From positions 1,313,887 through 1,377,886 of the forward strand of contig OZ246394.1 in NCBI GenBank assembly GCA_965230895.1: a stretch of 64,000 bases of DNA. Reading direction: 5' to 3'. Positions 18,001 to 53,188 of this stretch are shown here, in pieces; the stretch's first letter is position 1, and every line of letters starts with the position of its first letter. The position numbers were made by a program, and so were the translations under genes. The notes under the pieces are model-generated. The model had not been told where the DNA came from and made no database searches. It worked only from the letters and a program-made list of their open reading frames with translations. The stretch is from an uncultured Gammaproteobacteria bacterium. GTDB taxonomy: Bacteria > Patescibacteriota > Microgenomatia > Levybacterales > UBA12049.

Positions 18001-21000
18001 GCAATATCTCGACCATCAGTTGTGTTGATTGTATTTCCACCAGTGTATGCAGATTGGAGTGAGATAGCATCAGATGCACATTTGTTGATTTGGCCAGTAC
18101 TGTTGTCGACACAAACCAACAATCCATTTGGTGCAGCATCAAGTCCTGTGACATAGAATCCAGAATCTGTATCAGTGTTGATTGTGACATTTCCTGTACC
18201 AGCTGGAGTGAATGTACTTGTACCATTTGCAGTCAAATCATTATCAACTGTCAATGAATTGTTGATTGTTGTCAGTCCTGTGTCATCTCCAATTGAAACG
18301 ACTGTTGCATCTCCGCCGATGTTCAATGTCGTAGCGTTTGCATTAAAGAGGGAAGCGATGCCAGTCGATGAAGTTGTAATGTCTCCACCATTTAATGCCA
18401 AATCACCACCTGATGTGATGTCTCCAGTTAATGTTGATGTACCATCAATGATTAAGTTACCATTTGCAGAGACATTACCTGTATTTGTAACTGTCAAACC
18501 AGTTGATCCATAACCATTTCCAACGTTCAATGCATCAAATGAAGCAGTTGCAGAATTTGCATTGAATGTTGTTCCGAGGAATGAAACAGTTGCATTTCGG
18601 ATTGTTGCAGTACCAGTTGTTGCTCCGATTGAGATTGTTGTTGCTGCACTACCGATGTTCAATGTTGTTGCATTAGCATTAAAGATACTTGCAGTTCCAG
18701 ATGTTGTGGTGATGTCTCCGCCGTTCAATGCCAAGTCACCACCTGATGTGATGTTTCCTGTACCGCCAGCGACTGAGAAGTTAGTTCCTGAAATATCATT
18801 TGCACCAAGTGCGATTGCAGTGACGATAGATGCATCTGAGACATCAAGAGCAGTAGTAATTCCACCGCCACCTGATGAGGAAATTTTAAGTCCAATTGGC
18901 AAAACTCTGTCGGTGTCTGCATTATCGATAAGTACTAATTGTGCTGGATCATTTGTACCTGAACCGTCAGCACGGACAAATTCAGTTCCACCTGTTGCTC
19001 CATCAGCCGTGGTGATAGTGAATTTAGAATCAGTAGCAGTGTCAGCGAGTGTGAATGCGATGTCTCTATTATTTGTTGTGGTGATTGTGTTACCTCCAAC
19101 ATATGCAGATTGGAGTGAGATCGCATCAGCTGCACACTTTGTAACCTGACTTGTTCCAGCATCGATACAAACGAGTGTACCTGAAGCTGTTGGCAAGCCA
19201 GTTATGATCAATGGAGAATCATTGTCAGTGTTAAATGTGATTGAACTTGTGCCAGCTGGATTAAAGACGACATTGCTGTTTGCAGTGAGATCACCTTCAA
19301 CAGTAAGTCCATTGTTCACGGTCGTTGTACCTGTATTTGCTCCGATTGAAAGGGTAGTAGCTGCGTTACCGATATTCAATGTGGTTGCATTTGCATTGAA
19401 TATCGAAGCAGTTCCAGCAGTTGTTGTAATGTCTCCACCGTTTACTGCGAGATCTGCTCCAGCTGTCACATTGCCAGTAAGTGTAGAAGTGCCATCGATT
19501 GTGAGGTTGCCATTTGCTGAGAGATTACCAGTGTTGGTGATACTCAAACCAGTTGATCCATAGCTTCCGCCAACTGAGAGTGAATCAAATGAACCAAGCG
19601 CAGATGATGCATTAAGAGCTGTTGCGTTAGGGAAGTTGATAGTTGTACCTCTTATGTTACCGGTACCGGATGTCGCACCCAATGTATATGTCGTAGCAGC
19701 ACCACCGATATTCAATGTGGTTGCATTGGTATTGAAGATAGTTGCAGTTCCAGTTGTTCCGGTTGTGATGTCATTGCCATTGAGAGTCAAGTCTCCATTT
19801 GAAGTAATACTTCCGGTTGCTCCATCGACTGAGAAGTTAGTCCCAGCGATGCCACTGACACCGAGTGAGATACCGGTAACGATGGTTGGATCAGAGAGAT
19901 CAATACCTGTTGTTATGCCGCCACCGCCTGATGATGAGATAGTCAAACCGACTGGAAGAACTCGGTCAGTATCAGCATTGTCGATAAGAACGAGTTGGGT
20001 AGGATCGTTTGTGCCATTGCCATCTTCTCTGATGAATTGTGTACTTCCGGTTGAACCTGATTCTGTTGTGATGACGAAGTTTGCATCTGTTGCAGTGTCA
20101 GTCAAAGTGAATGCGATGTCTTTTGCATTTGTTGTTTCGATTGTGTTGCCTCCATCATAAGCAGATTGGAGTGAGATAGCATTGGATGCACATTTGGTGA
20201 TTTGATCTGTGCCATTGTCGATACAAACCAAGTTACCAGTAGCTGTTGGCAAGCCAGTGACATAGAGCCCTGAATCAAGATCAGTGTTAAGAATAATGTC
20301 GTTTGTACCTGATGGAGTGAGGGTTGTTTGACCAGTGACCAACAAGTCATCTGAAACAGTAAGGTTATTGTTGATTGTGGTTGTACCTGTATTGGCACCG
20401 ATATTCAAAGTCGTTGCAGCCCCAGCAAAGTTCACTGTCGCTGCGGTTGCATTGATCAAGTTAAATGTTGTTGCACTGGTTGTAAGATCTCCACCATTCA
20501 AAGCCAAGTCTCCAGCTGAAGTGATGTTTCCTGTAAGTGTTGATGTACCGTCGATGATCAAGTTACCATTTGCTGAGATGTTGCCAGTGTTTGTGAGTGT
20601 AGTACCAGTAGAACCATAGCCTCCACCGATTGTGACTGAATCAATTGTCAAAGCTGCTGATCCTGCATCGATTGCCGTAGCATTTGGAAGTGAGAGGGTA
20701 GCATTGTTGATTGTCATTGTGCCACTTGCTGCTCCGATATTTACAGAAGTAGCAGCGGCACCAATGTTTAATGTTGTGACGTTTGCATTGAATACGTTGC
20801 CAGTTCCTGCAGTTGTAGTCAAACTGCCACCATTTACAGCGACGTTTCCAGCTGAAGTGATGTTGCCGTTGGATCCGTTAACTGAGAAGTTTGTACCTGA
20901 GATGTCATTTGCGCCAAGTGCAATTGCAGTCACGATCGTTGGATCAGAGACATCGATTGCTGTTGTGACGCCACTTGTACCTGATGATGTAATTCTCAAA

Positions 21001-24000
21001 CCGATAGGGAGGATTCGATCAGCATCTGCGTTGTCGATGAGGACCATTTGGTTTGGATCTGAAGCGCCAACACCATCAGCTCGGATGAATTCTGTACCAC
21101 CAGTTGATCCTGTAGCAGTTGTGATGATGAATTTAGAATCAGTTGCAGTGTCGGCTAATGTGAATGAGATGTCTCGTCCATCAGACGTTGTAATAGTATT
21201 TCCACCATCATACGCTGATTGCAATGTTGAAGCTGATGGAGGACATTTGACGACATTGTCTGAAGCATCAATACAAAGTGTACTGTTGGATGTCATTGGT
21301 GTTGTCAATCCAGGAAGGTTAAGGAATGAATCAGCATCTGAAACGATTGTGACACCATCAGTACCTGATGGTTGGAGAAGCACTGCGCCATTTGCTGTGA
21401 AGTCACCATTTGCTGTTGTGTTGCCAGTGATAGTCAATGCATTGTTTACAGTAGTTGTGCCAGTTGCTGCTCCGATTGAAAGAGTAGTAGCAGCACCACC
21501 GAAGTTCAATGTGGTAACGCCAGCATTAAGTAAGTTGAATGTCGAATCGTCTGATGTTAATGATCCGCCGTTGATTGCCAAAGTTCCAGCGAGGACGCCG
21601 TTATTGTTGATTGTGGTTGTTCCTGTGTTTGCTCCAATATTAACTGAAGTAGCATCTCCACCCAAGTTGAGTGAAGTAGCATTGGTATTGAATAAGTTCA
21701 CTGAAGAAGCAGTTGTGGTGATGTCACCGCCATTGACTGCGATACTGCCACCAAATGTTGCGAGTCCAGTACTGTTGAAGGAGAAGGTTGGATTGGTTGT
21801 CATGTTACCGAAAGCGATGTTCTGTGCTCCGGTTGTTGTGTTAACTGAAATGTAATTGTTTGCGCCTTGTGTAACTGAGAATGCATTTGCAAGGTTATTG
21901 ACGATGTTGTTTGAGATTGTGCTTGAAGCACCATTAGCAGTGAGTGTGACGTTAGTGCCATTGATGTTTACTGCGTCTCCGCCATCTCCGACATTTGAAA
22001 TTCCATTTGAGTTGAATGTGCCACTGACGACCAAGTCATTATTGATTGTAGTTTCTCCGGTTGCTGCACCGATTGAGATTGTTGTTGCATCTCCACCCAA
22101 GTTAATTGTTGTCGCACTTGTATTAAAGATAGAAGCTGCACCTGCATTTGTCGCAAGCACACCAGAGTTAGCGTTGATATCACTATTAGCAGTGATACTG
22201 CCAATTGTTGCAAGGACACCGTCCTCATCAATTGTGAGTGAAGGATTGCCTCCAGATTGGATGGAGAGGGCAGTGTTAGCAGTTCCAACGTTTGTGTCAT
22301 TTATGACGATTGCTGTTCCAGTTCCAGCATTAACGACGTTGAAGCCAGTAGCATTACCGTTGTTTGTTAAGTTGAATGAAGTTGCTGTTGTAAGTCCAGA
22401 TGACAATGTGAAGTCGATACTTCGGTTGTTTGTTGTAACGATAGTATTGCCGGTGTCATATGCTGATTGGAGACCGAATGGTGAACCACTACAATAACCC
22501 AAAACATTGTCATCATCAAGACAAAGTGCTGTACCTGTTGTTCCGCCTGTTGATTGCAAACCGTTAATGGTGATTGTTGAATTGTTATCAGTTTCGAAGA
22601 GGATATCATTTGTGTCATCTGGAGCAAAGACGGCTGAACCACTTGCATTGAAGTTTGTCCCTGCAACGACGTTAACTCCACCGTTGAATGTCGCTAAGTC
22701 AGTCACATCAAGTTGTCCACCGAGTGATGTTAATCCAGTTCCGACAGTGAATGTATTTGCTCCAGTCACTGCTGTTGCTCCATTGAGCGAGACTGCACCA
22801 GTTCCAGTTGAGAATGTACCAGCACCAGCTTGAGTGAAGTTAGCATTTGCATTGATGTCACCGCCAAAGGTTGCTGCTCCAGTACCGAGGAAGTTAAAGA
22901 TTGGATTGGTAGCTGCATTACCAAGTGCGATTACTTCAGCTCCATCAGTCGTGTCGATGTTGAAGTAGTTGTTGGTACCTTCTTGGATATCGAGAGCATC
23001 AGTTGCATTGTCGGTAAGGTTTGCTGTGATTGTTGAACCATTCAATGTCAAAGCATTTGCATCGTTTCCAGCTGTAAATGATCCAGCACTTGCAAGTGTT
23101 GTGTTGCCAGTTGATGAAAGGGTAGTGAAGGCAGCAGTTGACGGAGTTGTTGCTCCGATTGCTGTACCGTTGATGCCTGTTGCTGTAACGTTGAGATTTC
23201 CAGAAGTTATCAACAAGTTATTCACACCAGTGTTGATAGATGAGGCTGAGAGGCCTGAAAGGTTCAAAGCACCTGAGGTAGCAGTCAAGTTCAAAGCTCC
23301 AGTTGTTTGGGTAAATCCGTTTGAAGCAGTAAGGAGTCCAGCAGATGTGATAGCGCCAGTGCCAGTTGTACTCAAGTTTCCTGAAGTTGCAAGGTTTCCA
23401 TTCTCATCAATACTCAATGTTTCAACGCCACCTGATTGGAGAACGAGAGACTTGTTTGGAGTTCCGACGTTTGTGTCATTGATGATGAATGCACTTGCTG
23501 CACCTTGATTCTCAAGCGTGAATGAAGTGTCAGTCGCAACATCAGCCAAGGTGAATGATATATTTCGAGCATCAGTTGTAACGATTGTGTTGCCAGTGTT
23601 ATATGCAGCTTGCAAACCGAATGGAGCACCGTTACAAAGTGCCAAGTTGTTACTGCCATCAATACAAAGTGCGTTTCCAGCAGTTGTTTGGAGACCGTTA
23701 AATTGGACAGTTGAATCAGCATCCGTATTGAATACAACGTCATTTGTGCCACTTGGAGCGAATGTTGCAGCTCCACTAGCATTGAGTGCTTGTCCATTGC
23801 TGACAGTGACACCACCATTGAATGTAGCGAGGCTCGCAACATCAAGTGTTGAGTTAAGGTTTGTCGCGCCAGTAACTCCAAGTGAACCACCAAGCGTGGT
23901 AGCACCGGTTCCGACTGAGAATGTGTTTGTGCCAGTGACTGAAGTATTTCCATTCAAGCTGACGTTACCAGTACCTGTGGAGAATATATTTGCACCTGAT

Positions 24001-24500
24001 TGAGTGAAGTTACCGTTTGCAGCGATATCTCCACCAAATGTTGCTGTGCCAGTTGTGACTGTAAATGCATTTGAAGCGGTAAGGAGTCCAGCAGAAGTGA
24101 TAGTTCCAGTGCCAGTTGTACTGATATTGCCTGTTGTTGAGAGTGTACCAAGTTCATTGATGGTCAAAGTCGTTGAACCGTTATTTCGGATATCAATTGC
24201 AGTTCCAGTTGCCCCGTTTGTGTTATCAAGGACAAATGCACTTGCTGTTCCTGCATTGGTTAAGGTGAATGAAGCATCAGTAGCTGTGTCAGCGAGTGTG
24301 AAAGCGATATCTCGGCCATCAGTTGTGGTGATAGTGTTGCCAGCGTTATATGCTTGCTGCAAGGTTACATTCAGTGCATTGGAAGAACAGATAGCGAGTT
24401 GGTTGTCTGAGTTTCGGCAAACAACTGTACTGCCAACATTACCTGAAAGGGTAGGTACTCTGACTAAATCATTGAGGATTATTTCGCCTGAAGCACTTGC
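1..24500 (-). repeat. Coding tandem repeat array inside the giant gene. The period is about 1.05-1.1 kb (about 350-370 aa), with at least 22 copies and an internal half-period.
   Basis: The plus-strand antisense ORFs repeat the motif ...PVEPYPPPT... about every 1.05-1.12 kb (ends at 7761, 8880, 9864, 10953, 12060, 16380, 17460, 18513, 19563, 20619). On the minus strand each unit contains the run LC.DGSDNV.KCS..S..LQSAYNGGNTI..TD.RDIAFTL.DTATD.NFT.TTA.GSTG... followed by ...NGGDITT...TTLNIGGAATTLNIGA.TGT.TINN... Many nucleotide k-mers longer than 30 nt are shared between copies. Confidence 0.85.
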
Positions 24501-27500
24501 TTCAAGAGTAAGGTCTTGATTGTTTCCGGTAGTGATATCCAAAGCTGCATTGTCGAAAACTAGTCCTGTAGTTCCAATTGTTTTGTTATTCAATGTCTGA
24601 GCTTGGTTCGCAAACACAAAAGTATCATCCGCAGATAAGGCTGGAAGTGTAGCTACTCGTGGTGCTGATGAAGCAAGTGCTGAAATGGTTGTGGTGTTGC
24701 CTGAACCAAGGATAATTTGGTTTGTTGTCGCTTGAGAGGTGAGAGTGCCAGTGGTAACCAAGTTGCCATTTTCCCCGATTGTCAGTGAGTTCGTACCATT
24801 TGATTGGATAGCCAAAGCTGTACCATTGCTTCCATTTCCTGCATTGGTGTCGTTGATTACTACGCCATTTGCTGTACCTTGATTTTGGATAGTGAATGAT
24901 GAATCTGTGGCTGTATCAGCGAGTACGAAAGCTATGTTTCGATTATCAGTTGTTGTTATAGTATTGCCAGCATCGTATGCCTGCTGAAGGGTAACATTCA
25001 AAGCGTTTGAAGAACAGACTGAAAGTTGGTTTGCTGCATTTCGGCAGACTACGGTATTTCCAGCAGTTGCTGAAAGGTTTGGTACTTGGAGGAGATCATT
25101 GATGATTGTTTGACCCAAACCATTTGCATCAATGGTAATATCCTGATCTGTACCTGAGGTTATATCTGTACTTACGCCGAGGAAGGTGAGTGTGCCGGTT
25201 GTACTGATTGCTCCTGAAGAGATTGTTGTAGCGCCTGAGATTGCTCCAGCATTGGTGATGCCACCGATGTTGTTGTTGATACCGCCTGTGATGTTTGCTC
25301 CGCCTGCAGCAACTGTTACTCCACCAGCTGTGATACTGAGTCCACCTGTTGAGATTGTTTGTCCAGCAGTGAAGACGTTTGCTTGATTGAGGTAGGCGAC
25401 GTTGTTCAATGTTCCAGCGGTATTAATATCAGCTCCATTCAATTGAATCGCACCAGTTGCATTGAGGCTTGCTCCTTGGATTGTTCCTGAAGCCGTAAGG
25501 TTAGTGATTCCAGTGATAGCTCCTGCATTGATGATACCGCCATTGGTATTATCGAGTCCACCACTGATTGTTGTGCCATTGTTTACGCTCAAACCATTTG
25601 AAGCGGTGAGTAAACCAGCAGACGTGATAGTTCCAGTGCCAGTTGTAGCTATATTGCCTGAAGTTGAAAGATTTCCTGTAGAAGTAAGTGCACCATCTTC
25701 GGTGATGGTGAGGTTCGTCACACCATTGGACTGTACTACTAATGCATTATTAACAGCGAGGCTAGTATCATTGAAAAGAAGACCATCTCCATCTGCAGCA
25801 CTGGTTATGATTAGGCCTGTAGCATCTCCATCATTATTTATTTCAAATGATGTGGGTGTGGTCAATCCTCCAGCAAGATTGAATGAAATGTTTCGGCCAT
25901 CTGATGTGTCTATAGTATTTCCTGCATCGTATGCTTGTTGCAATGTGACCTCAGCAGCATTGGCTGGACACTGGACTAATTGGTTGGTGACATCGTCTCG
26001 GCAGATGGTTGTTGCAGAGTTTGTCGTGGTGTTGAGTACTGAAAGTTGTGTTGTCTTGCCAAGAACGATCTCGCCAGTTCCGTTAGGTGATAGGGTGAGG
26101 TTTTGATTAGTTCCTGATGTAAGTGTTGAAGAAACGCCACTTAAGACGATATTTCCTGAAGTAGTAATAGAACCAGAACTGATTGTTCCTGTTGTGATAA
26201 GGTTCCCGTTTTCATTGACTGTGAGTGTTGATGTTCCATTTGATTGGATATCGAGGGCAAGTTGATTAGCACCATTGGTATCGTTAATGACAAATGCACT
26301 TGCTCCTGTCCCTGCATTGGTGAGTGTGAATTGTCGTGATGAACCGTTTGCCAATGTGAAGTCCACATCGCCGAATGTATCATCCGCTGAGATTGTATTG
26401 CCAGCTTGATATGCTTGTTGCAAATCTACATTTGCAGCGTTTGCAGGACATTGGATCAATTGATTTGTTACGTTGTCTCGGCAAACGGTAGTTGCAGTAT
26501 TAAGACTTGTATTAAGTGTCGTCAATTGGAGTGGACCAGCCAATGTTAATTGACCTGTACTTCCGAGACTTGCAACTTCAGTACCAGAGTTATTCTGGAA
26601 TGAGAGTTCATATGCTGGGCCAGTTCCTGTAACTTGGTTTTGGAGACTGAATCCGACATTGGTTGATGATGAGCCATTCCAATATGCTCCTTGGAAGGTA
26701 ACAAGGTTTGAGTTTTGAGTCTGTGATCCAACTGTTGCATTGCCAACTCTGTTCAAAGTCAATGTATCTGTTCCTGATTGATCTCCGATTTCGACACCTG
26801 AGAGAGCACCGATAACTGTGCCGTTGTCTGTAATGTTTGAATCACCGATGTTTGAAGCGAGGCCTGGATCGATGAATCGAGCGAGTCTGTATTGATTACC
26901 TTGTCCTCCGACGACTCCACCTGTACCAGCACAGTTACCTGAAGTTACACAGATAGCACCACTTGCATCAGGGACAGTTAGCACTCGGGTGGTGCCAGTT
27001 GATATCTGACTTGCATCAAAGATGAACCGCTTTGAAGTATCTGTATCGTCAACGAAGTAGGTAGTCAAATCAGTCAATGATTTGTTACTGAGAGTCTGTG
27101 TTTGATTCTGGAAAACGAATGTATCGTTGCTTGTGAGAGCCGGTAGTGTTGCGATTCGAGATGAAGAAGGGGCGATTGAGTTGATTGTAGTAGTATTTCC
27201 AGATCCAAGAACCAATTGATTTGAGGTTGCGAGAGAGGAAAGTGTGCCATTTTCGCTTATGGTTAATGTATTAACGCCGCCTGATTGGATAGCCAAAGCG
27301 ATATTTGTTGCTGCATTAGTATCGTTGATAACGAATGCATTATCGGTTCCTGCATTAGTCAATCGGAATGAAGCATCATCAGTAAGCGTATCAGCAAGTG
27401 TAAATGAAATATCTCGAGCATCAGTTGTGAGGATTGTATTGCCAGAATTATACGCTTGCTGCAATGTAACAGCTGCAGCGTTTGCAGGACATTGAACCAA

Positions 27501-29897
27501 TTGGTTTGTGACATTGTCTCGGCAGACTGTTGTTGCAGTATTAAGCGTCGTATTAAGTACTGAAAGTTGCGTCTCACTGCCGAGAACGATACTTCCTGAT
27601 CCGGCAGAGAGGGTGAGCGCCTCATTTCCTGTGGTTGCGATATCAGTTGCAGCTCCAGTAAAGAGTAATCCACCTGCTCCGATTGTCTTGTTGGTGAGTG
27701 TCTGAGCTTGATTCTCGAAGACGATTGTATCGTTTGCGCTGAGTGATGGGATACTGACGATTCTTTGAGCTGCTTGCGCGTTAGCATTGAAGACTACGTT
27801 ATTGCCAGTTGGTCCAAGTGAGAGTTGATTACTGCTATCTGATAGGTGAGCTGAAGATCCATTAAGGATTCCAGAACAAGTGATGTTGCCTGACGCATTG
27901 GTGATTGTACAACCAGTTGCTGCTGCTCCGCCAGCTAAAGCGACATCACCAGCACCGTTGACTGAAAGAGCTGTCGCTCCAGTGTTTTCATTGGTTAATG
28001 AAAGAGTGTTATTGTCAACAACAATCGCATAATCATTTTCTCCTCCAACTCCTCCTGTTATATCTTCAAACCGTAATGATGGGTCAGTATTTGAAATAGT
28101 GATATCTCCATCTGAAGTTGCTGCACCAGAAAGGTAAAGGTTTCGGAATCGCTTTGTTGCAGATCCAAGATCATAAACAGCATCTGCATCAGGTCCGATA
28201 TTTCCACCCACTTCTACGAGAAAATCCCCTGAAGGGTTTGTGCCGATTCCTACGTTTCCATTTGGTATGAGGAGGTTTCCTCCTCCCGTATCCAGTTGGA
28301 GATTTCCACTGTTATCCGTGGCAATCGTCGGATCAGGCGAACCATTGCCAGCAGAGTAAAGGGTGAGACTGCCAGATGTTCCTCCCAATCCAGTATTGTT
28401 CGTACCGAGAGCGAGAGCTCCTGTTGCTGAGTTAAAGAAGAGCGTCGCGTTACCGATTGTTCCATTTCCTCCGAGGATAAAGTCGTTAGCAGTTGAAGTA
28501 GGGCGGATGTAGTCGCCATATGTTGAATCGTTATCAACGATGAATGGAGTAACACCTGCTGAAGTGATCGCATTGTCGAGATCTTCAAGTACTTGTTGTA
28601 AATTAGTTGAACTAGCATTTGCGAAACTATCGTAGACGCCGACTAAGTTTGCACCTGAAGTATTTGCATCTGAACCTTCTGCATCAAGCGCGATTGAAGA
28701 CCAAGCTGGAAGACCATTTACTACCTGGAGGATTTTTCCATCTGTATCTCCAATTGGAAGCGCATCTAATTCATTGTTTCCTGAAGCAAAAAGTATGTCA
28801 CCAGTATTATATGAAGTCATACCAGTGCCTCCGTTGGCAACTGAAACTGTGCCATTGATAGCGCCAGCATCAACTGAGCCTCCAGGACCAATCGTTATAT
28901 TATTAGAAACAGCAACGTCTGTTATACAAGAAGCACAAGTTCCTCGTGCAACAACATCTCCAAGGGTAGAGATATCACTTATTGTTAATCCATCAATAGC
29001 AATTCCGTCACCTGATTGAAGTTCTATTTCGCCAGTTTCACCTTGAAGTGATGTTACTGTTTCAGCCTCAGGAGGAAGCTCAACCGAAATAGTAGGGTTT
29101 TGCTTATCTCCTGAAAGGACAATATTGTCTCCAGCCACGATGCTGTAGAGGATATTTGGAGCTGTAAGATCGCCTGTGAATTCACCTGTACCACCAACCT
29201 TGAGATCCTTATCGATCGTCGTGTTCCCATCAACCTCAAGGTTCTTTTTCACAGAGACGTTTTCCTTGAAAATGACCGGCAAAGCGAATGTAACATTTCC
29301 CGCAAGTTTTACTTTACTCGTCTCAGCAGCTAAGACTTCGCCATCTTGCGCAGAAGCAGTCCTGTAGTCGGTTGTCTCAAAGAGGAATCTGAACTTGTCT
29401 TGATTGCTGATGCCCACAAGTCCCAAAACAAGCAAAATCGTTGTAGTAATTGCGAGAGTTTTTGTCGATGGGACATGGAATTTGAAGCTGAGAGAATCGG
29501 AGATTTGTGCCTTGATGTGGTCTTTGATGAAATCGTCTTCGTAAAACCCATTACCGATCCAGTTCACTAGCCTTCGGTAAAAATCCGCCTTGGCGATTTT
29601 GTCAGGTAGGGTAGCAGGCTCTGAAACTACCTTTGCCAACTCAGATTCCATCTGCCCTGATGGGGTATCTGAAGCGTTGACTACTTCACCTTGTGCAGCC
29701 AAGTTTGAAGCCTTTTGAATTTCGAGAAAGTTCTCAAGCTGTTCCTCCGTGTACCCAATCTGCCCGTCATGGGTAATCGTAGGTTTGAGAATGTGAAGCT
29801 GGTTCCATTTGAGCAGCGTGTCAGTTGAGACTGCTAGTCGTTTAGCAGCCTCTTGAAGAGTGAGCAATTTAGGAGTTTTTGGACGGGCAGAATCCAT
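1..29897 (-). CDS. Giant cell-surface repeat protein. It is partial: the C-terminal part continues beyond the window start. N-terminal HTH_17-like domain, one transmembrane helix, then at least 9,800 aa of ectodomain made of tandem beta-solenoid-like repeats.
   Basis: Start codon is the reverse complement of cat at 29895-29897, and the upstream in-frame stop is the reverse complement of tca at 29994-29996. I checked the reading frame by hand at the start, near 12000 and at positions 1-60, and it is the same frame with no stop encountered (codon top coordinates are congruent to 2 mod 3). All three plus-strand frames show long spurious ORFs, which is typical of the antisense of a stop-free gene. 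The translation reads MDSARPKTPKLLTLQEAAKRLAVSTDTLLKWNQLHILKP..., then a TM helix TLAITTTILLVLGLVGI, and ends at the window edge with ...DGSDNVVKCSAASNTLQSSY. Confidence 0.8.
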   Translation of the reverse strand, partial: MDSARPKTPKLLTLQEAAKRLAVSTDTLLKWNQLHILKPTITHDGQIGYTEEQLENFLEIQKASNLAAQGEVVNASDTPSGQMESELAKVVSEPATLPDKIAKADFYRRLVNWIGNGFYEDDFIKDHIKAQISDSLSFKFHVPSTKTLAITTTILLVLGLVGISNQDKFRFLFETTDYRTASAQDGEVLAAETSKVKLAGNVTFALPVIFKENVSVKKNLEVDGNTTIDKDLKVGGTGEFTGDLTAPNILYSIVAGDNIVLSGDKQNPTISVELPPEAETVTSLQGETGEIELQSGDGIAIDGLTISDISTLGDVVARGTCASCITDVAVSNNITIGPGGSVDAGAINGTVSVANGGTGMTSYNTGDILFASGNNELDALPIGDTDGKILQVVNGLPAWSSIALDAEGSDANTSGANLVGVYDSFANASSTNLQQVLEDLDNAITSAGVTPFIVDNDSTYGDYIRPTSTANDFILGGNGTIGNATLFFNSATGALALGTNNTGLGGTSGSLTLYSAGNGSPDPTIATDNSGNLQLDTGGGNLLIPNGNVGIGTNPSGDFLVEVGGNIGPDADAVYDLGSATKRFRNLYLSGAATSDGDITISNTDPSLRFEDITGGVGGENDYAIVVDNNTLSLTNENTGATALSVNGAGDVALAGGAAATGCTITNASGNITCSGILNGSSAHLSDSSNQLSLGPTGNNVVFNANAQAAQRIVSIPSLSANDTIVFENQAQTLTNKTIGAGGLLFTGAATDIATTGNEALTLSAGSGSIVLGSETQLSVLNTTLNTATTVCRDNVTNQLVQCPANAAAVTLQQAYNSGNTILTTDARDISFTLADTLTDDASFRLTNAGTDNAFVINDTNAATNIALAIQSGGVNTLTISENGTLSSLATSNQLVLGSGNTTTINSIAPSSSRIATLPALTSNDTFVFQNQTQTLSNKSLTDLTTYFVDDTDTSKRFIFDASQISTGTTRVLTVPDASGAICVTSGNCAGTGGVVGGQGNQYRLARFIDPGLASNIGDSNITDNGTVIGALSGVEIGDQSGTDTLTLNRVGNATVGSQTQNSNLVTFQGAYWNGSSSTNVGFSLQNQVTGTGPAYELSFQNNSGTEVASLGSTGQLTLAGPLQLTTLNTSLNTATTVCRDNVTNQLIQCPANAANVDLQQAYQAGNTISADDTFGDVDFTLANGSSRQFTLTNAGTGASAFVINDTNGANQLALDIQSNGTSTLTVNENGNLITTGTISSGSITTSGNIVLSGVSSTLTSGTNQNLTLSPNGTGEIVLGKTTQLSVLNTTTNSATTICRDDVTNQLVQCPANAAEVTLQQAYDAGNTIDTSDGRNISFNLAGGLTTPTSFEINNDGDATGLIITSAADGDGLLFNDTSLAVNNALVVQSNGVTNLTITEDGALTSTGNLSTSGNIATTGTGTITSAGLLTASNGLSVNNGTTISGGLDNTNGGIINAGAITGITNLTASGTIQGASLNATGAIQLNGADINTAGTLNNVAYLNQANVFTAGQTISTGGLSITAGGVTVAAGGANITGGINNNIGGITNAGAISGATTISSGAISTTGTLTFLGVSTDITSGTDQDITIDANGLGQTIINDLLQVPNLSATAGNTVVCRNAANQLSVCSSNALNVTLQQAYDAGNTITTTDNRNIAFVLADTATDSSFTIQNQGTANGVVINDTNAGNGSNGTALAIQSNGTNSLTIGENGNLVTTGTLTSQATTNQIILGSGNTTTISALASSAPRVATLPALSADDTFVFANQAQTLNNKTIGTTGLVFDNAALDITTGNNQDLTLEASASGEIILNDLVRVPTLSGNVGSTVVCRNSDNQLAICSSNALNVTLQQAYNAGNTITTTDGRDIAFTLADTATDASFTLTNAGTASAFVLDNTNGATGTAIDIRNNGSTTLTINELGTLSTTGNISTTGTGTITSAGLLTASNAFTVTTGTATFGGDIAANGNFTQSGANIFSTGTGNVSLNGNTSVTGTNTFSVGTGATTLGGSLGVTGATNLNSTLDVASLATFNGGVTVSNGQALNASGAATFAPSGTNDVVFNTDADSTVQFNGLQTTAGNALCIDGSNNLALCNGAPFGLQAAYNTGNTIVTTDARNISFTLADVATDTSFTLENQGAASAFIINDTNVGTPNKSLVLQSGGVETLSIDENGNLATSGNLSTTGTGAITSAGLLTASNGFTQTTGALNLTATSGALNLSGLSASSINTGVNNLLITSGNLNVTATGINGTAIGATTPSTAAFTTLSSTGNTTLASAGSFTAGNDANALTLNGSTITANLTDNATDALDIQEGTNNYFNIDTTDGAEVIALGNAATNPIFNFLGTGAATFGGDINANANFTQAGAGTFSTGTGAVSLNGATAVTGANTFTVGTGLTSLGGQLDVTDLATFNGGVNVVAGTNFNASGSAVFAPDDTNDILFETDNNSTITINGLQSTGGTTGTALCLDDDNVLGYCSGSPFGLQSAYDTGNTIVTTNNRSIDFTLSSGLTTATSFNLTNNGNATGFNVVNAGTGTAIVINDTNVGTANTALSIQSGGNPSLTIDEDGVLATIGSITANSDINANSGVLATNAGAASIFNTSATTINLGGDATTISIGAATGETTINNDLVVSGTFNSNGISNVGDGGDAVNINGTNVTLTANGASSTISNNIVNNLANAFSVTQGANNYISVNTTTGAQNIAFGNMTTNPTFSFNSTGLATFGGSIAVNGGDITTTASSVNLFNTNATSLNLGGDATSVNIGANTGTTTINNNGVLAGTLAINGGSLTSDDSTFNLLNAGVTTLNFGGAATTLSIGAATGTTTVNNALTITGNTTANGDFTANGAVLLQPSGTDGVTIVSDADSFLNLPGLTTPMTSNSTLCIDASDNVVKCPPSASTLQSAYDGGNTITTSDGRDISFTLADTATDSKFIITTATGSTGGTEFIRADGVGASDPNQMVLIDNADADRILPIGLRITSSGTSGVTTAIDVSDPTIVTAIALGANDISGTNFSVNGSNGNITSAGNVAVNGGSLTTTAGTGNVFNANVTTLNIGAAATSVNIGAASGTMTINNATLSLPNATAIDAGSAALTIDSVTIGGGYGSTGTTLTNTGNISANGNLIIDGTSTLTGNITSAGDLALNGGDLTTSATTFNLINATAATVNFAGAATTLNIGANTGTTTINNNLTVSDDLLVTGQTTLTPSGTNDIILNTDLDSGLYVTGLPTATGNLVCIDNGTDQITKCASNAISLQSAYDGGNTIETTNAKDIAFTLTDTATDANFVITTESGSTGSTQFIREDGNGTNDPTQLVLIDNADTDRVLPVGLTISSSGGGGITTGIDLSDPTIVTGISLGVSGIAGTNFSVDGATGSITSNGDLTLNGNDITTGTTGTATIFNTNATTLNIGGAATTYTLGATSGTGNIRGTTINFPNATALNASSALGSFDSLSVGGSYGSTGLSITNTGNLSANGNLTIDGTSTLTGNVTAGADLAVNGGDITTTAGTASIFNANATTLNIGNAATTLSIGANTGTTTVNNGLTVEGDLTANSNVVFNPAGTSSITFNTDNDSPLIITGLPTASGTLVCIDAGTSQVTKCAADAISLQSAYVGGNTITTTNNRDIAFTLADTATDSKFTITTADGATGGTEFVRADGSGTNDPAQLVLIDNADTDRVLPIGLKISSSGGGGITTALDVSDASIVTAIALGANDISGTNFSVAGGTGNITSGGDLALNGGDITTTSGTASIFNANATTLNIGSAATTISIGATTGTATIRNATVSFLGTTFNANSATASFDALNVGNGYGSTGLTVTNTGNVSANGNLIIDGTSTLTGDITSGGDLALNGGDITTSSTGIASLFNANATTLNIGGDATVVSIGDDTGLTTINNSLTVDNDLTANGTSTFTPAGTGNVTINTDTDSGFYVTGLDAAPNGLLVCVDNSTGQINKCASDAISLQSAYTGGNTINTTDGRDIAFTLANTATDANFTITTADGSTGFTSFTRANGAGTSDPTQLILVDNLDTDRAVAAGIKIQSAAGGITNALDLSDAEIVNALSLGANNVTATNFSIAGASGDITTSGDVAVNGGDITTTQTTGNLFNTNVTTLNLGGDATTINVGASTGTIAINNQTISLPNATAINAGGALATLDAANLGGGYGSTGVSISNAGTIQANGNLTIDGTSTLTGNITSAGDLALNGGDLTTTSPTFNLINANATTVNFAGAATTLSIGAGTGTTTVNNALTITGNTTANANFTANGQSTFNPSGTNGVNITTDADSFLNVSGLTTAAGDVVCIDGSNNVVKCADSSISLQSAYDAGNTINTTSGRNIAFNLSDDATDSNFIVTTATGSTGGTQFIRADGVGSNDPTQLVLIDNADSDQILPIGLTISSTGGGGITTALDVSDASIVTAIALGANDITGTNFSVDGSNGNITSAGNIAVNGGNITTTQSSANIFNSNATTLNIGGAATSLTIGATTGTANIRNATINFANATSFNAPNAAAQFSSIAVGGGYGDTGVTLSSAGNIQANGTLTVDGASTLTGNITSSGDLALNGGDITTTALTASLFNTNATTVNIGGAATVISLGAATGTTTVNNDLAVTGTGTFTGALTANDSFDANGQSTFSPAGTTGVTINTDGDSFLTLTGLTTPGVAGTTLCLDASDNVTKCGGATFSLQAAYNGGNTINTTDARDIAFTLTNTATDSNFTVTSATGSTGNVQFLRADGSGTNDPSELVLIQNLDTDRALPVGLRIAGVTGGDVTTAIDLSDANIVNAIDFGDNDIVGTQLSITGSTGQITTSGDIAVNGGDITTTSGTANVFNTDATTLNIGGAGTAITIGATTGTTTIRNATLSLPNATTINALQATANIDALNVGDGYGSTGATIANNGNIQTNGTLTVDGVSTLTGNVTAASDLAINGGDLTSSATTFNLLNAGVTTLNIGGAATSVNIGAGTGTTTVNNALNVTGLATFNGGATVPSGQTFTANGISTFTPDGSNDVTINTDSDSFLTITGLTTATGNLLCIDGSDNVTKCSAGSVSLQGAYNGGNTINTTNNRDISFTLADTGTDANFTITTATGATGGTQFLRADGVGTNNPDQLVLIQNLDADQALPVGLKIAGVTGGDVTTAIDLSDANIVTAIDLGANDIAGTNFSVDGSNGNITSAGDAAINGGDITTLATSANIFNTNATTLNIGGAATSLNLGAATGTATINNDTVVLSNATAFDALSALARIDSLEVGGGYGSTGATIANNGNISTNGTLTVDGISTLTGNTTVGGTLGVTGATTLSSTLAVTGNTTMTGDLAVNGGDITTSATTFNLINGTATTVNFAGAATNLTIGGTTGTATIRNDQVVLSNATAFDALGALARVDGLQVGGGYGATGVTVSNTGNIQANGNLTIDGTSTLTGNVTAAGDVAINGGDLTTNQTTFNLLNTNATTLNIGGVATNVNLGAGSGRTTLNNNLTANIVDNSADALDIQEGTNNYINVDTTDGAENISFGNSSTNPTYTFSGTGLATFASNIAVNGGTIQTSATTANVFNATATTLNVGGAATSLNLGATTGTATINNATLSLPNATAINAANALATIGSLSVGGGYGSTGVSVSGTGNIQANGTLTVDGTSTLTGDITSAGDLALNGGDLTTTAGSASLFNTNATTVNIGGAATVISLGAASGTTTVNNDLAVTGTGTFTGDLTANDAFTANGASTFSPASANDVVINTDTDSFLTVTGLQTVTGSLLCIDGSDNIVKCSQGSISLQSAYNGGNSITTTDNRNIAFNLADTTTDANFTVTTAAGSEGYSYFGLADGANTAPANQLVLIENADADDAVAAGLRIQSENGGITTALDVSDAEIVNALAIGANNITGTNFSVDGGNGNVTTSGNVAVNGGTLSTSATTANLFNTGATALNVGGAATTLNIGATTGTANIRNATVALPNATAFDALSALARVDGLQVGGGYGSTGVSISNTGNIQANGTLTVDGASTLTGNVTTAGDVAVNGGDLTTTAGTFNLVNANATAVNFAGAATSLSIGAATGTTTVNNALTATGLITANDGITVATGETLTANGQSTFNPDGTNGVTVNTDADSFLKVTGLTTATGQTVCIDGADNIVKCSAASITLQSAYDGGNTINTTDGRDISFNLTNTATDSNFSVTTAAGSTGSSYFGLADGANSTNPAQLVLIENADTDDALATGLRIQSAAGGITTALDVSDAEIGTALAFGANDITGTNFSVTGSNGNVTTSGTITATGNINANSGTLATTQATGNLFNATATTLNIGGAATTVNIGAASGTMTINNATLSLPNATAINAANAIATIDSSVLGGGYGSTGISLANNGDISANGNLIIDGTSTLTGDVTTAGDLAVDGGDITTSAGTASIFNTNATTLNIGGAATAISLGAGTGTTTVNNALTATGLATFNGGATVATGQTFTANGASTFSPSGTNDVTINTDTDSSLILTGLATATGNALCLDGSNAVTLCNGAPFGLQAAYNTGNTIATTDARDIAFTLANTTTDSNFTVTTAAGSTGYSYFGLANGTNTTSPSQLVLVENLDVNEALSTGIRIQSAAGGITTAIDLSDAEIVNALSLGANDVTATNFSINGGNGNITTAGDVTVNGGDVTTTNATASLFNANATTLNIGAAATAINIGASTGTMTINNETLSLPNATAINAANAALTIDSVAIGGGYGSTGVSISNAGTIQANGNLTIDGTSTLTGNVTTAGDVAVNGGDITTTAGTASLFNANATTLNIGGDATAITLGAGSGTTTLNNNLTANLVDNNADAFDIQEGSNNYININTTDGAENISFGNTTTNPTYSFLGTGAATFGGNVAVNGGSITTTATTANLLNANATTVNFAGAATTLNIGASTGTATINNATLSLPNATAINAASAVATLDSAVLGGGYGSTGVSISNAGNIQANGNLTIDGTSTLTGNVTTAGDVAVNGGDLTTTSGTFNLVNANATTLNIGGAATTLAIGANTGTMTINNATLSLPNATAINAGSAALTIDSLVVGGGYGSTGVSISNTGNIQANGNLTIDGTSTLTGNVTAAGDAAVNGGDITTTAGTASLFNTNATTVNIAGAATVVNLGSSTGTTNVNNDLLVDGTTTATGLATFNGGATVATGQTLTANGQSTFSPDGTNGVTINTDADSFLTLTGLTTPVSAGSQLCVDGSNNVTKCSGNTVTLQSAYNGGNTINTTDGRDLAFTLSDTTTDANFTVTTAAGSEGYSYFGLANGTNSAPAGQVILVENADSNEAIAAGIKIQAAAGGITNALDLSDADIVNALSLGANDVAATNFSIAGGTGNITTAGDVAVNGGDLTTTNATAALFNTNATTLNVGGAATTLNIGANTGTANINNATINFANAIAINAGSAALTIDSVTIGGGYGSTGTTLANNGNISANGNLIIDGTSTLTGDVTATGDIALNGGDLTTSATTFNLVNGNATTVNFAGAATALSIGSGTGTTNVNNNLLVDGTTTSTGLATFNGGATIASGQSFIANGGSTFSPNGTNDITINTDTDSLLTITGLQTLTGSALCIDGSNTVAVCSADSITLQSAYNGGNTINSTDGRDIAFTLENTTTDSNFTVTTATGSTGGSQFVRADGAGAADPTQLVLIQNQDVNRALPTALRIAGVSGGAVTTAIDLSDANIVNALSLGANDVAATNFSIDGSNGNITTSGTVTATGNINANSGTLATTQTTANLFNATATTLNVGGAATTVNIGAATGTMNLNNATVNLANATAFDALTALARVDGLQVGGGYGSTGVTISNAGNIQANGTLTVDGISTLTGNVTASGDVAINGGDLTTTAGTFNLVNANATTVNIAGAATAISLGAGTGTTNINNDLLVDGTTIATGLFTANGGATVATGQTFTANGQSTFSPNSTNDVVINTDTDSFLQVTGLTTATGSTLCVDGSDNVVKCSAASITLQSAYNGGNTISTTDARNIGFTLADTATDANFTITTADGSTGFTSFTRADGVGTNDPAQLILVDNEDTDRAVAAGIKIQAAAGGITNALDLSDADIVNALSLGANDVAATNFSIAGATGNISTSGTITATGNITTSGDVAVNGGDITTNASTFNIANGTATTVNVGGAATSLVLGASTGTATINNQTLSLPNATAINAGSATLAIDAVNVGNGYGSTGTTLSSNGNIQSNGNLTVDGTSTLTGDVTTAGNLAVNGGSITTNATTANLFNSTATTVNIGGAASTNFAGGYGSTGATIASNGDVSANGNLTIDGTSTLTGNVTTSGDIAVNGGDITSNQSTLNINAGGTVAIDDNITVTGTVSNSAGNLVLDDTTDIGSAAQGIRITPTGGISDIDGDLTLNDNTIVDGTLVVTGAISDSNSSLNLNDNTDVTGDFTVSGRTTLGSVTQGDGTLNVTGSQVGKALVILNETGDQNILTASASGTTVLNIGRTGNLQIEGSLSDLSENTLNVDDNLSITGNLSLTGTVSNSAGNLVLDDTTDIGSATTGLRVSTAGSISDIDGDVSIADNLNLNGTIANSGGNVVLDDIVDLGSATTGLRIATSGEITDIDGNVSINDTLDLSGNFAQSGAYTFTTGTGAVTLNGNTSVSGSNTFSVGTGLTSLGGAATITGTTTLNGALIANGTANFTNAAGITVGEDIASGTSNTPGAIKLISDGDNAYSTSFITGTQTEDITYTLPIDNGGTNYVLSTDGSGNLSWQSAAGVGAGTIVGVGNVLTGSAFTGNDSSAQKGNNLTFEGSTSVNDGNDITVTAVNPASSLTFTLPDLGTNGTFAFLEGSQTFTGSKTFNDIVLADAAIALTGGNTTLDITGGATRTLSLENSTGGQVANLDLTDGSLFTGSTSRLTNAGGLENITNYAQTAGNFDITGAGTFSTGTGAISLNGDTTLAANTDFTIAAGTGAVNFLNTSGISIGEDVAPGSSNTPGQFSVVSDGDNAYSTTFVASTQTENIIYTLPTDAGGTNYVLATDGNGVLSWQSASGVGAGTITGVGNVLTGSAFTGNDSSANKGNNLVFEGSTSTDDGNDITVTAVNPAASRTYTLPDLGTNGTFAFLEGTQTFTGAKTFADLSISDTNVAFTGGNTTLDITGGGTRTLSLENSTGGQVANLDLTDGSLFTGGTSRLTNAGALENITGYTQTAGNFAQSGSGTFSTGTGAVSLNGATSVTGANTFTVGTGLTSLGGQLGVASYATFSASLDVAGNTNLNAALNVDGATTLNDALSVDGVATFNNNIAQTGASTFSTGTGAVTLNGDTTLVSGKTLTTTGSFVANGQSTFTPSGTNDLVINTDTDSFLNITGLATATGTQLCIDASNNVTKCSAASSTLQGSYVGGNTIDTLDARDIAFTLTDTATDSNFTITTAAGSTGYTYFGLADGSNPSSPAQLQLIENLDVNEALTAGIRIQSAAGGITTAIDLSDSDIVTALALGANDVSATNFSITGSNGNIATAGQVTIGGGYGSTGTTLAANGDVSANGNLTVDGTSNLTGNVTTSGNVAVNGGSLTTTAGTANVFNTGATTVNFAGAATNVQIGAGTGSTTVNNAFNATGLATLNGGATIPTGQTLTANGTSTFSPNGTNDVTINTDTDSFLTLTGLTTPGTAGNALCLDASDNVTKCSASTFTLQGAYDGGNTLTTTDARNIEFTLTDTATDANFTITTADGSTGFTSFTRANGAGTTDPAQMILVDNQDTNRAVAAGIKIQAAAGGITNALDLSDAEIVNALSLGANDVTATNFSIAGGSGDITTAGDVAVNGGDITTTAATVNLFTTNATTLNVGSAATAVTIGAATGTTTINNATVNFANATSFTAPSAAATLNSLQVGGGYGSTGTTLSNAGDIQSNGNLTIDGTSTLTGNVTTAGDAAINGGDLTSSAGTFNLLNSGVTNLNIGGAATAISIGAGTGTTTVNNALTVTGLITANGGATIASGQTFTANGISTFSPNGTNDVTVNTDSDSFLVLTGLTTDLGTALCVDGSDNVVKCSAASNTLQSSY

Positions 29898-30110
29898 GTG
29901 TTTTACAAGATAAGTTCGAGAGCTAGAGGATTTAGGCTTATAAAAATATAAAACTCTAGCCTTATCTAACTTTATTATTATTAATATAGGTAGTCAAGTA
30001 GGAATTTACATGTTTCTTACGTTGAAAAGACTTAGAGTAAATTGCTCAACAATAGCCTGAGTAGGGAATTGATATATTTTGAAGCTTTATAGTGCGATTT
30101 TATATCATCA
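29898..30110 (-). promoter_or_regulatory. Probable promoter and 5' leader of the giant gene. It lies in a very AT-rich spacer.
   Basis: It sits directly upstream of the first in-frame ATG. The stretch 29940-29990 is extremely AT-rich (TATA-like runs). There is no obvious Shine-Dalgarno sequence. Confidence 0.3.
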
Positions 30111-50620: not shown

Positions 50621-50682
50621 AGTTCAGTAATTCCTTAGTATATTTTCCTTGAAGATTTTTGTGGTGTTTTCGTGGCTTACTG

Positions 50683-50755
50683 TGGGCCAGGAAGGACTCG
50701 AACCTTCGACAAGGAGTGTATAAGACGCCTGTTCTAGCCGCTGAACTACTGGCCC
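50683..50755 (-). tRNA. tRNA with a probable TAT anticodon (Ile-AUA)
   Basis: The reverse complement reads gggccag-tagttcagcggctagaac-a-ggcgt cttatac actcc-ttgtc-gaaggttcgagtccttc-ctggccc-a. The acceptor and T arms are perfect. The anticodon stem has one C-U mismatch. Confidence 0.7.
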
Positions 50756-53064: not shown

Positions 53065-53188
53065 ACTTCCTGAATCATCTCATTCTTTTCGGAATCCCTG
53101 TAAGCGATTTTCTAGAAACAATATTCAAACCGTTGTAGAAGGGGTTTCTATAGGGGATGGAGCAGAAATATATTTGTTTTGACTTTGT

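Follow-up and report, generated by a model that had tools for sequence, protein, structure and literature searches.

A cell-anchored giant protein of an uncultured patescibacterium whose proximal ectodomain is probably the stalk of a fibre with phage-type building blocks

The window analysed here is a stretch of 64,000 nucleotides (nt) of contig OZ246394.1 (assembly GCA_965230895.1, positions 1,313,887 to 1,377,886), deposited as an uncultured Gammaproteobacteria bacterium and placed by GTDB in the Levybacterales of the Patescibacteriota, and our subject is a giant gene of this ultrasmall bacterium of the candidate phyla radiation, on the minus strand of the window, in particular the first part of the extracellular portion (ectodomain) of the encoded protein. 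Namely, a stop-free frame of 9,997 codons runs on the minus strand from nt 29993 to nt 3 and off the window edge, and its first ATG, at nt 29897 (MDSARPKTPK...), opens a product of at least 9,965 amino acids (aa). Residues are numbered from this methionine, so that the first base of residue n is nt 29897 - 3(n-1). Note that the gene continues past the start of the window and that its C-terminus lies outside it, so all sizes given are lower bounds; at 30 kb or more, the gene makes up at least 1.9% of the 1.61 Mb source contig. The protein starts with a helix-turn-helix (HTH) domain, followed by a single transmembrane (TM) helix and an ectodomain that is Thr/Gly/Asn/Ala-rich throughout. It is reasonably probable, in our view, that the region just outside the membrane is the proximal stalk of a giant fibre, probably trimeric and anchored by its N-terminus, whose successive segments are joined by modules with a cysteine hairpin. 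The features of the N-terminus and of the proximal ectodomain, all on the minus strand, are as follows.

29712..29867, minus: cytoplasmic MerR/excisionase-type helix-turn-helix (aa 11-62), from Pfam and PHROG matches and conservation in homologues
29403..29459, minus: single transmembrane helix TLAITTTILLVLGLVGISN (aa 147-165), from a Kyte-Doolittle scan
27978..29402, minus: unique, family-conserved proximal ectodomain (aa 166-640), without internal repeats of substance
29178..29336, minus: spike-like segment just outside the membrane (aa 188-240), from a weak match of its profile to PDB sequences
28698..28940, minus: CxxC (aa 321-324) and one GGTG unit (aa ~345-400), from invariant alignment columns
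28125..28277, minus: GNVGIGT...LEVGGNIGPDADAVYDLGSATKRFRNLY unit (aa 541-591), family-conserved, holding both tail-fibre-like motifs discussed below
27876..27911, minus: isolated Cys hairpin CTITNASGNITC (aa 663-674), which closes the unique head

The giant open reading frame (ORF) is one real gene under strong purifying selection. Its frame is undisrupted over 30 kb, and its flanks are cellular, with an F-type ATP synthase operon upstream on the same strand and a histidine kinase gene. The closest relative, L001 (CAZDOJ010000001.1, a contig of 1.32 Mb), is syntenic, again with the ATP synthase operon upstream, at a DNA identity of about 79%. Over aa 1-2250 the two proteins are 86% identical, with a ratio of nonsynonymous to synonymous substitution rates (dN/dS) of 0.06-0.10 at a dS of about 1, and their alignment contains zero gaps across aa 641-2070. 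Because the alignment is free of gaps and dN/dS is low, the irregular mosaic that occupies this part of the protein is a stable, selected architecture and not repeat debris.

At the N-terminus, the HTH matches Pfam MerR_1 with an E-value of 4.3e-4 and 20.8 bits, just under the cut-off of 21.6, and it also matches HTH_17 and, at E 9e-6, PHROG 66 (excisionase/regulator). It evolves slowly (dN/dS 0.056 against L001), and between it and the TM helix lie an acidic linker and a conserved W.G.GFY motif; neither the coiled-coil dimerisation helix nor the effector-binding domain of MerR is present after it. In all 9,965 residues, the only 19-residue windows with a Kyte-Doolittle mean above 1.6 start at aa 145-148. 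A signal peptide is absent, the N-terminus consisting of the HTH and then of a TM helix 147 residues in. What is more, an HTH lies at the ORF start, with a hydrophobic segment after it, in 53 of the 76 related genome loci, and several other proteins of 4,000-6,000 aa open with the same HTH-plus-TM design.

These loci come from a scan of one genome per species, which gave 76 loci of the family; a metagenome scan with the core of the main array described below gave 76 further loci. Those of the genome loci that are named belong mostly to Patescibacteria, namely to Levy-, Ames-, Roizman-, Woese-, Curtiss-, Davies- and Kerfeldbacteria and to Saccharimonadales. The N-terminal 800 aa have eight homologues at 39-49% identity, one of which, from a metagenome-assembled genome (MAG) of Candidatus Saccharimonadales, is annotated as 'MerR family transcriptional regulator'. 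Family alignments confirm the order of MerR-like HTH, TM helix, conserved head and Cys-hairpin modules, the head following the pattern ITAPNILY...CxxC...GGTG unit...GNVGIGT/DLGS..FRNLY; Cys modules occur in 21 of the 76 genome loci. Of the 30 best matches among these loci, 29 hold a gene that extends beyond the edge of the locus or contig. Short-read contigs carrying atpC were found in SRR14271353, SRR14271360, SRR14271365 and SRR14271372; two of these contigs extend into the giant gene, where they break off after about 400 residues. The family is effectively invisible in annotation, since nearly every database copy is truncated or labelled as a MerR family transcriptional regulator, and no published description of an HTH-TM giant fibre family was found in the searchable literature. 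Many MAG records that carry the gene, L001 included, are titled 'uncultured Gammaproteobacteria' or 'Pseudomonadales', titles which look like mislabels given that the other loci name lineages of Patescibacteria.

The proximal ectodomain (aa 166-640) is the part of the protein that is conserved across the loci of Patescibacteria: it is 42-49% identical in the homologues P0001-P0008 and 83% identical in L001, against which its dN/dS is 0.065, and in a tiled self-comparison it alone proved truly unique within the protein. The original prediction, made from the bare sequence, had described nt 24500-29400 as a non-periodic ectodomain, and this description suits aa 166-640, while aa 641-2870 are a mosaic of several recurring module types. 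Its start at 29400 is correct, as aa 147-165 are the sole TM helix of the visible protein; its end at 24500 cuts a module and comes too early, as the regular array begins only at aa 2875. Both motifs that it had likened to tail fibres, at about 28130-28260, are found there, each occurring once and each conserved in the family: GNVGIGTNPSGDFLVEVGG at aa 547-565 (nt 28203-28259) and GSATKRFRNLYLSG at aa 578-591 (nt 28125-28166). The GGTG unit has the pattern GGTG...GDiLy...LpiG...iLqv.nG.P.W. The hairpin that closes the head is kept in homologues as 'TGCT..N..GN..C.G', and this motif recurs in the distal part of L091, one of the related loci. The CxxC reads CASC (window 28926-28937) and is invariant across all aligned homologues and in the relative P0069. 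In a trimer, the CxxC could form a six-cysteine ring or an axial metal site, much as cysteines form an annulus in the P22 tailspike (PMC3357383).

How is the ectodomain related to phage fibres and spikes? The direct links are three, all of them weak. The profile of aa 188-240 matches the baseplate spike gp45 of phage Mu in the PDB (3vtn, 3vto, 9ki1) with weak E-values of 0.002-0.009, the common pattern being '...LxVxGxSxFxxxITAP'. Residues 541-588 (GNVGIGT...DLGSATKRFRNLY) match, by tblastn, the C-terminus of virion structural protein gp177 of Synechococcus phage ACG-2014e, with an E-value of 7e-4 against 2.3 Gb and of 4e-10 pairwise, including the near-identical stretch GNIEPGADATQDLGSATKRFANIY; the gp177 gene lies two genes upstream of an annotated tail-fibre gene. 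Finally, aa 934-986 match gp183 of Rhodococcus phage Francesca (E 1e-3), a mosaic protein with PHROG tail-fibre, tail and head-fibre matches over the region it has in common with the window. Pfam, PHROG, NCBIfam and PDB scans of aa 1-2068 and of the array recognised the HTH alone, and profiles of the Cys module and of the GGTG unit found nothing credible among PDB sequences. Matches of the array to KOW7, UBA_RAD5A and PilY2 were rejected as summed noise, without any individually significant stretch.

Stronger links run through relatives. In a search of 1.84 billion representative proteins, the head profile returned 5,461 at E <= 1e-3, and its positions 140-220 (the GGTG unit) and 345-410 (the GNVGIGT unit) appear as many-copy tandem repeats in other large proteins. 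In particular, P0086 and P0116, with a repeating GNVGIGT-type unit, match Pfam End_tail_spike above threshold as well as tail-fibre and tail-spike PHROGs, whereas the window's own sequence has no match to End_tail_spike or to a PHROG tail fibre. The GGTG unit in relatives matches phrog_30390, and P0011 (4,745 aa) consists of about 56 tandem GGTG units with Peptidase_S74 at the end, a domain in which P0049, P0035 and P0044 end too. Peptidase_S74 is the intramolecular chaperone of trimeric tailspikes of the endosialidase type. P0069 (2,121 aa) has a MerR HTH (42.9 bits against a threshold of 28.2) and a Peptidase_S74 domain at aa 1733-1795, and its aa 232-393 are 49% identical (E 3e-42) to aa 220-399 of the window protein, including the CxxC and the GGTG unit. 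Judged by these comparisons, the ectodomain is built of units homologous to those of phage tail-fibre and tail-spike proteins and of S74-terminated relatives, and the links to phage fibres are real, if mostly indirect.

Beyond the head, the protein is irregular up to about aa 2870 (nt ~21290), this zone being made up of seven Cys modules, three spacers, one unique insert and Gly/Thr/Asn/Ala runs, and from aa 2875 (nt 21275) onwards it is a regular array. Cys modules come in two subtypes, A before the array and B within it, and the scores below are those of a profile hidden Markov model (HMM), for the modules of subtype A one built from array copies only.

27678..27833, minus: spacer module L, copy 1 (aa 689-740), internal repeat
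27186..27695, minus: junction module A, copy 1 (Cys aa 792/803), 42.9 bits
27075..27224, minus: spacer module L, copy 2 (aa 892-941), internal repeat
26538..27098, minus: unique insert (aa 934-1120) with ...NKSLTDLTTYFVDDTDTSKRFIFDASQISTGTTRVLTVPDASGAICVTSGNC, without internal repeats
26145..26654, minus: junction module A, copy 2 (Cys aa 1139/1150), 28.7 bits
25665..26174, minus: junction module A, copy 3 (Cys aa 1299/1310), 48.3 bits
25098..25745, minus: Gly/Thr/Asn/Ala run 1 (aa 1385-1600), 59.7% of these residues, 3.7% charged
24708..25217, minus: junction module A, copy 4 (Cys aa 1618/1628), 53.4 bits, the copy modelled below
24573..24725, minus: spacer module L, copy 3 (aa 1725-1775), internal repeat
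24081..24590, minus: junction module A, copy 5 (Cys aa 1827/1837), 51.5 bits, the one cut by the end coordinate 24500
23718..24125, minus: Gly/Thr/Asn/Ala run 2 (aa 1925-2060), 61.8% of these residues
22185..23837, minus: two more junction modules of subtype A (Cys aa 2078 and 2459), beyond the range first predicted
3..21275, minus: subtype-B array of ~357-aa units, with partial duplications and one divergent stretch; unit HMM 380-570 bits

The visible protein has 52 cysteines, all of them in 26 pairs, and 23 of these pairs follow one pattern, C-x9/10-C and then LQ(Q/S/A)(A/S)Y..GNTI..TD.R.I.F.L. Seven such modules precede the regular array, which itself holds fifteen complete ones and another, at aa 9944, that is cut by the window start. 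Where the original prediction had seen four to five copies of a separate module with a period of about 280 aa, there are indeed five (first cysteines at aa 792, 1139, 1299, 1618 and 1827, with codons at nt 27524, 26483, 26003, 25046 and 24419), but they are not periodic: the spacings are 347, 160, 319 and 209 aa, then 251 and 381 aa to the copies at aa 2078 and 2459, and about 278 aa is merely their mean. The further proposal that these modules are variants of the Cys-pair module of the array is borne out. Namely, the array HMM recognises the five N-terminal copies with 29-53 bits (i-E 6e-11 to 2e-18), while the best of 50 shuffles of the region reaches 1.6 bits, and aligning them with the array modules gives a common core of about 110-130 aa, from ~57 residues before to ~50-70 after the first cysteine. 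By sequence, then, the N-terminal Cys modules are homologous to those of the array. After the core the subtypes part: the first seven copies continue as ...AFVINDTN...LAIQSNG..LTI.ENG.L., the array copies as ...TGGTQFIRADG...LVLI.N.D.D..LP.GL.I...ITTA.D.SD..IV., and these halves have no detectable relation (hhalign E = 0.11), being either unrelated or too diverged. Homologue searches with a single module or a module profile returned only 1 and 11 short fragments, respectively.

Spacer L, with the consensus SNQLxLG...LPAL..DTFVFxNQxQTLxNKxI, is seen in internal matches among aa 677-740, 888-941 and 1714-1775. The Gly/Thr/Asn/Ala runs, which had been predicted, exist; run 2 shares many internal matches with the array spacers, and the hydrophobic autocorrelation of run 1 has weak lags of 6 and 20. 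The insert is unique within the protein; its motif is also found at the end of P0002 and in L091.

What happens at the far end of the protein can be seen in relatives only. Three further loci, L091, L109 and L119, hold type-B units, and two of them (L091 and L109) open within an array that is 41-52% identical to that of the window. All three reach a stop codon after some 1,900-2,200 further residues without a counterpart in the visible window protein, their C-termini consisting of coiled-coil and a conserved '...NWWIVN' domain, and by analogy with these ends some two thousand more residues probably follow in the window protein. In L091 the distal part re-uses head-type units, among them AGGSGSTGCTITNSTGAIACAGG, GGNVGIGTTTPTEALTL and IIFPDAGGTICVSGQTC. 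Within this distal part, which in L091 spans 3198-8963, the three loci have long coiled-coil segments, and Pfam recognises no portion of this part in L091 or L119; in L091 there are also Fn3-like and possible carbohydrate-binding-like stretches, labels that were read by eye from the sequence. The array of the window protein has cores at ~46-59% aa identity to the first copy; its divergent stretch (window 2046-4880, aa 8340-9284) re-uses head-type units and includes a duplicated block of ~300 aa, with the motifs ...VDLGSATTGLRI..., ...GGTNYVL.TDG.G.LSWQS... and ...TLPDLGTNGTFAFLEG.QTFTG.KTF.

One more locus, L133, bears directly on the role of the Cys modules. It has one complete module (62 bits) and a second half-module, '...TATNVCRNSSGQLAGC', that runs directly into Peptidase_S74 (42 bits against a cut-off of 22). 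We read the Cys modules as junctions because in L133 the strand-run with its Cys hairpin sits where the stalk of a tailspike ends, while in ordinary modules the LQxAY-GNTI half follows the hairpin in place of the S74 domain. The word 'cap', used for this element in the original prediction, is therefore a fair one.

Structure prediction adds to this picture in a limited way. An AlphaFold2 monomer of one module (aa 1560-1730, from 41 aligned modules of the window and of relatives) reached a mean predicted local distance difference test (pLDDT) of 78.7 and a predicted template-modelling score of 0.53; it shows a beta-hairpin with the two cysteines on its strands and a short helix at LQQAYD, beyond which the chain is extended and has no regular secondary structure. 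A model of this kind is what one would expect for a single chain taken out of an intertwined oligomer. As for the beta-helix that had been predicted alongside the likeness to tail fibres, the latter holds mostly via relatives, and the former left no signal. Namely, Pfam, PHROGs, NCBIfam and PDB sequences give no pectate-lyase or autotransporter beta-helix, Pfam scans of the window protein give no YadA or Hep_Hag match, the monomer models contain no beta-helix, and hydrophobic autocorrelation finds no clean beta-helix period.

Taken together, we favour the following picture of a giant fibre. The polypeptide would be inserted with its N-terminus inside and its C-terminus outside the cell, aa 147-165 acting as a signal-anchor, and three chains would intertwine into a shaft like that of a phage fibre. 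Each Cys-hairpin module would then be a junction: the hairpin, probably stapled by a disulfide, would cap the end of one fibre segment, and the LQxAY-GNTI-TTDxRDIxFTL half would start the next one and help to keep the chains in register over thousands of residues. The conserved N-terminal end would be the attachment end, fixed to the cell membrane where a phage fibre has its virion-proximal end, and the variable far C-terminal end, outside the window, would do the binding. By analogy, the likely role of such a fibre is tethering to, or recognising, the host cell of an episymbiont. Patescibacteria in culture live as obligate episymbionts, and among the essential proteins of Saccharibacteria are surface proteins with a predicted adhesin function (PMC11665869). 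The HTH could either be a genuine DNA-binding domain or anchor the protein to a partner in the cytoplasm.

That said, several observations weigh against this picture. The direct phage matches are short (48-53 aa) as well as weak, and the ectodomain has no match at curated thresholds in Pfam, PHROGs, NCBIfam or PDB sequences. Pfam finds no S74 domain in the visible 9,965 residues, the C-terminus lying beyond the window start, and the closest relatives with visible 3' ends (L091, L109 and L119) are without one too, the Pfam check having covered L091 and L119. The AlphaFold2 monomer of the head (aa 180-690, from an alignment of 7 sequences) had a pLDDT of 37 and was not used. A Foldseek comparison of the module model with the PDB and with BFVD gave nothing significant. 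Finally, a role in adhesion is proposed by analogy and from the episymbiotic way of life of cultivated Patescibacteria (PMC11665869).

Could the ectodomain be something other than a trimeric fibre? One alternative, which we regard as unlikely, is a monomeric right-handed beta-solenoid adhesin of the pectate-lyase or autotransporter kind, with the Cys modules as caps between solenoid blocks. The Gly/Thr/Asn/Ala-rich composition and the short hydrophobic spacings would suit such a fold, and a distant relative, P0076, matches Pfam Bactofilin, a beta-helix family. Yet no Pectate_lyase, Beta_helix, autotransporter or Bactofilin match was obtained anywhere in the window protein, the monomer models are free of solenoid even at the pLDDT of the module model, there is no signal peptide, and relatives carry the trimer-specific S74 chaperone. 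What is more, an autotransporter would need an outer membrane, and to our knowledge none is known in Patescibacteria.

An alternative of much the same, low likelihood concerns function and is compatible with the very structure we propose: the fibre would be part of a cell coat or spacer layer, an envelope scaffold akin to an S-layer, and not a host-binding appendage. This would agree with a family that is widespread and conserved across many lineages of Patescibacteria, with a gene that adjoins a housekeeping ATP synthase operon in an arrangement syntenic in L001, and with an N-terminal membrane anchor. On the other hand, the array and the distal ends vary, with several C-terminal classes, which fits better with an appendage that determines specificity, and the building blocks are those of receptor-binding fibres.

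A further possibility, which we hold to be rather improbable, is that the protein is a membrane-tethered transcription factor or contact sensor, its MerR-type HTH being controlled by a giant mechanical or ligand-sensing ectodomain. Its topology resembles that of ToxR and CadC, the HTH is kept at the N-terminus throughout the family and evolves slowly, and a small HTH-TM protein lies directly upstream in many relatives. A combination of similar domains is found in eukaryotic MYRF, a membrane-bound transcription factor which unites a DNA-binding domain, a phage tailspike beta-helix with an ICA/S74 domain, and a TM helix in one polypeptide (PMC3742443, PMC8326128). Against such a sensor stand the missing MerR dimerisation helix and effector domain, the score of the HTH just under the Pfam threshold, and a size of more than 10,000 residues, which would be an extravagance. 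An HTH may also act as an anchor that binds other proteins, RodZ being an example. Equally improbable, in our estimate, is the related idea of an HTH that is mechanically or proteolytically coupled to the fibre and relays host contact to DNA, by regulation or by nucleoid tethering. If it were true, one would be dealing with a bacterial counterpart of MYRF and ToxR built on a domesticated phage tail fibre, and the small upstream protein of many relatives would join the circuit. The last and weakest alternative, a phage or prophage tail-fibre gene, a pseudogene, or a collapsed or expanded repeat of the assembly, is largely refuted: the similarity to phage fibres and the breaking of short-read assemblies inside the gene may suggest it, but the flanks are cellular, syntenic in L001 and without a phage tail module, the repeats have diverged to ~46-59% aa identity, and the frame is intact over 30 kb at a dN/dS of 0.06-0.10.

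It is instructive to set the giant fibre that we favour beside known systems. Among S74 tailspikes and fibres (K1F endoNF, the L-shaped fibre pb1 of T5, the neck appendage of GA-1), the likeness lies in the relatives with the window's head units, which end in Peptidase_S74 and whose GNVGIGT-type units match End_tail_spike, and in a shared polarity of conserved N-terminal attachment end and variable distal end. Unlike these proteins, the window protein is encoded by a cell, has a TM anchor instead of a virion-binding domain and a cytoplasmic HTH, is at least ten times longer, and has no S74 in its visible 9,965 residues. MYRF joins its DNA-binding domain, TM helix and tailspike-derived trimerising sequence in one polypeptide, and P0069 has all three. 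Their order, however, differs: MYRF reads DNA-binding domain, ICA, TM, with the ICA on the side of the DNA-binding domain, and the window family reads HTH, TM, fibre, S74, with the fibre outside the cell. Release of the MYRF type cannot apply, as the S74 domain would lie outside, far from the HTH, and self-cleavage could not free an HTH from across the membrane.

Like the window protein, ToxR, CadC and RodZ start with a cytoplasmic HTH, cross the membrane by a single TM helix and have their C-terminal part outside the cytoplasm. Their HTH is of the OmpR or XRE type, as opposed to MerR/excisionase, and in place of their small sensor domain the window protein has a fibre of more than 9,800 residues. 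Trimeric autotransporters of the YadA family are, like the fibre proposed here, long trimeric surface fibres of short repetitive beta units with periodic connector modules. They need, in addition to a signal peptide, a C-terminal beta-barrel anchor in the outer membrane, unlike the window protein, whose anchor is N-terminal and in the cytoplasmic membrane. The giant adhesins of monoderm bacteria have signal peptides, Ig-like or helical-bundle repeats and, commonly, a C-terminal wall anchor, as opposed to the N-terminal HTH and signal-anchor, the fibre-type units and the Cys-hairpin junctions seen here. Both are giant and extracellular, consist of tandem modular repeats and take up much of a small genome, the examples being Ebh/Embp, the Mobiluncus adhesin of 7,651 aa (PMC10619420) and the giant repetitive adhesins Giant1-5 of Apilactobacillus (PMC12863079). 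The giant genes of Omnitrophota are alike as giant ORFs of uncultivated small-celled bacteria that are often fragmented in assemblies; they differ in belonging to another phylum and in their proposed role, which is cell wall degradation by predatory bacteria, and the paper describing them treats the candidate phyla radiation as background only and does not mention MerR or helix-turn-helix (bioRxiv 10.1101/2023.11.21.568195).

Surface proteins of giant size and repetitive make-up are already known, and so are cellular proteins that contain modules of tail fibres. New is the N-terminal MerR-type HTH with a signal-anchor, new is a fibre of more than 9,800 residues made of phage-type units, and new is the family-specific Cys-hairpin junction module without a relative in Pfam or the PDB. 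The family appears to re-use parts of phage receptor-binding fibres as an appendage anchored to the cell. How cultivated Patescibacteria, which live attached to other microbes, find and hold their hosts is largely unexplained beyond type IV pili (PMC12206443, PMC11665869), and, if our reading is true, the family would be a concrete candidate for a host-recognition structure, one with a readable modular logic of conserved anchor end, junction nodes and variable distal end, and at the same time a case of giant-scale domestication of phage fibre modules.

Some minor observations concern the neighbourhood. A leader of 1.4 kb (window 29898-31318) separates the giant gene from the genes upstream; it is AT-rich (GC content 0.34), and a gap of similar length lies at the same place in L001. 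The leader has no Rfam match and no terminator-like site, and it contains fewer promoter-like sites than shuffled controls. It stands in the place of the small HTH-TM protein, which the window lacks. In many relatives (L004, L008, L013, L016, L017, L018, L021, L022, L024, L025, L026, L027, L029 and L031) this protein, of 380-510 aa, is encoded directly upstream of the giant gene (about 1.5 kb upstream). It starts with a MerR-like HTH and a TM helix as the giant protein does, and has a second hydrophobic segment and a conserved C-terminal domain with the motif ...KPELDSESD.FIERLM...PLSKLVTRLGFVG.KR.LFFPRTSK...; the HTH is the one part of it that Pfam matches. On the plus strand, the region 553-26106 holds more than 20 ORFs of 160-620 aa, most of which start with TTG or GTG. 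They were rejected as genes, being antisense shadows of the giant ORF that arise from its biased and repetitive composition.

Upstream of the ATP synthase operon and on the same strand, a protein with a CAP (cysteine-rich secretory protein) domain is encoded at 37603-38352, and two ORFs between it and the OSCP/delta gene, without a Pfam match, may be unrecognised membrane subunits of the ATP synthase. Finally, bacteria mostly read the codon AUA by a lysidine-modified CAT tRNA, and a tRNA-Ile with the anticodon TAT is unusual; the window carries one at 50682-50755, together with two tRNA-Met(CAT) at 53187-53256 and 53317-53391.

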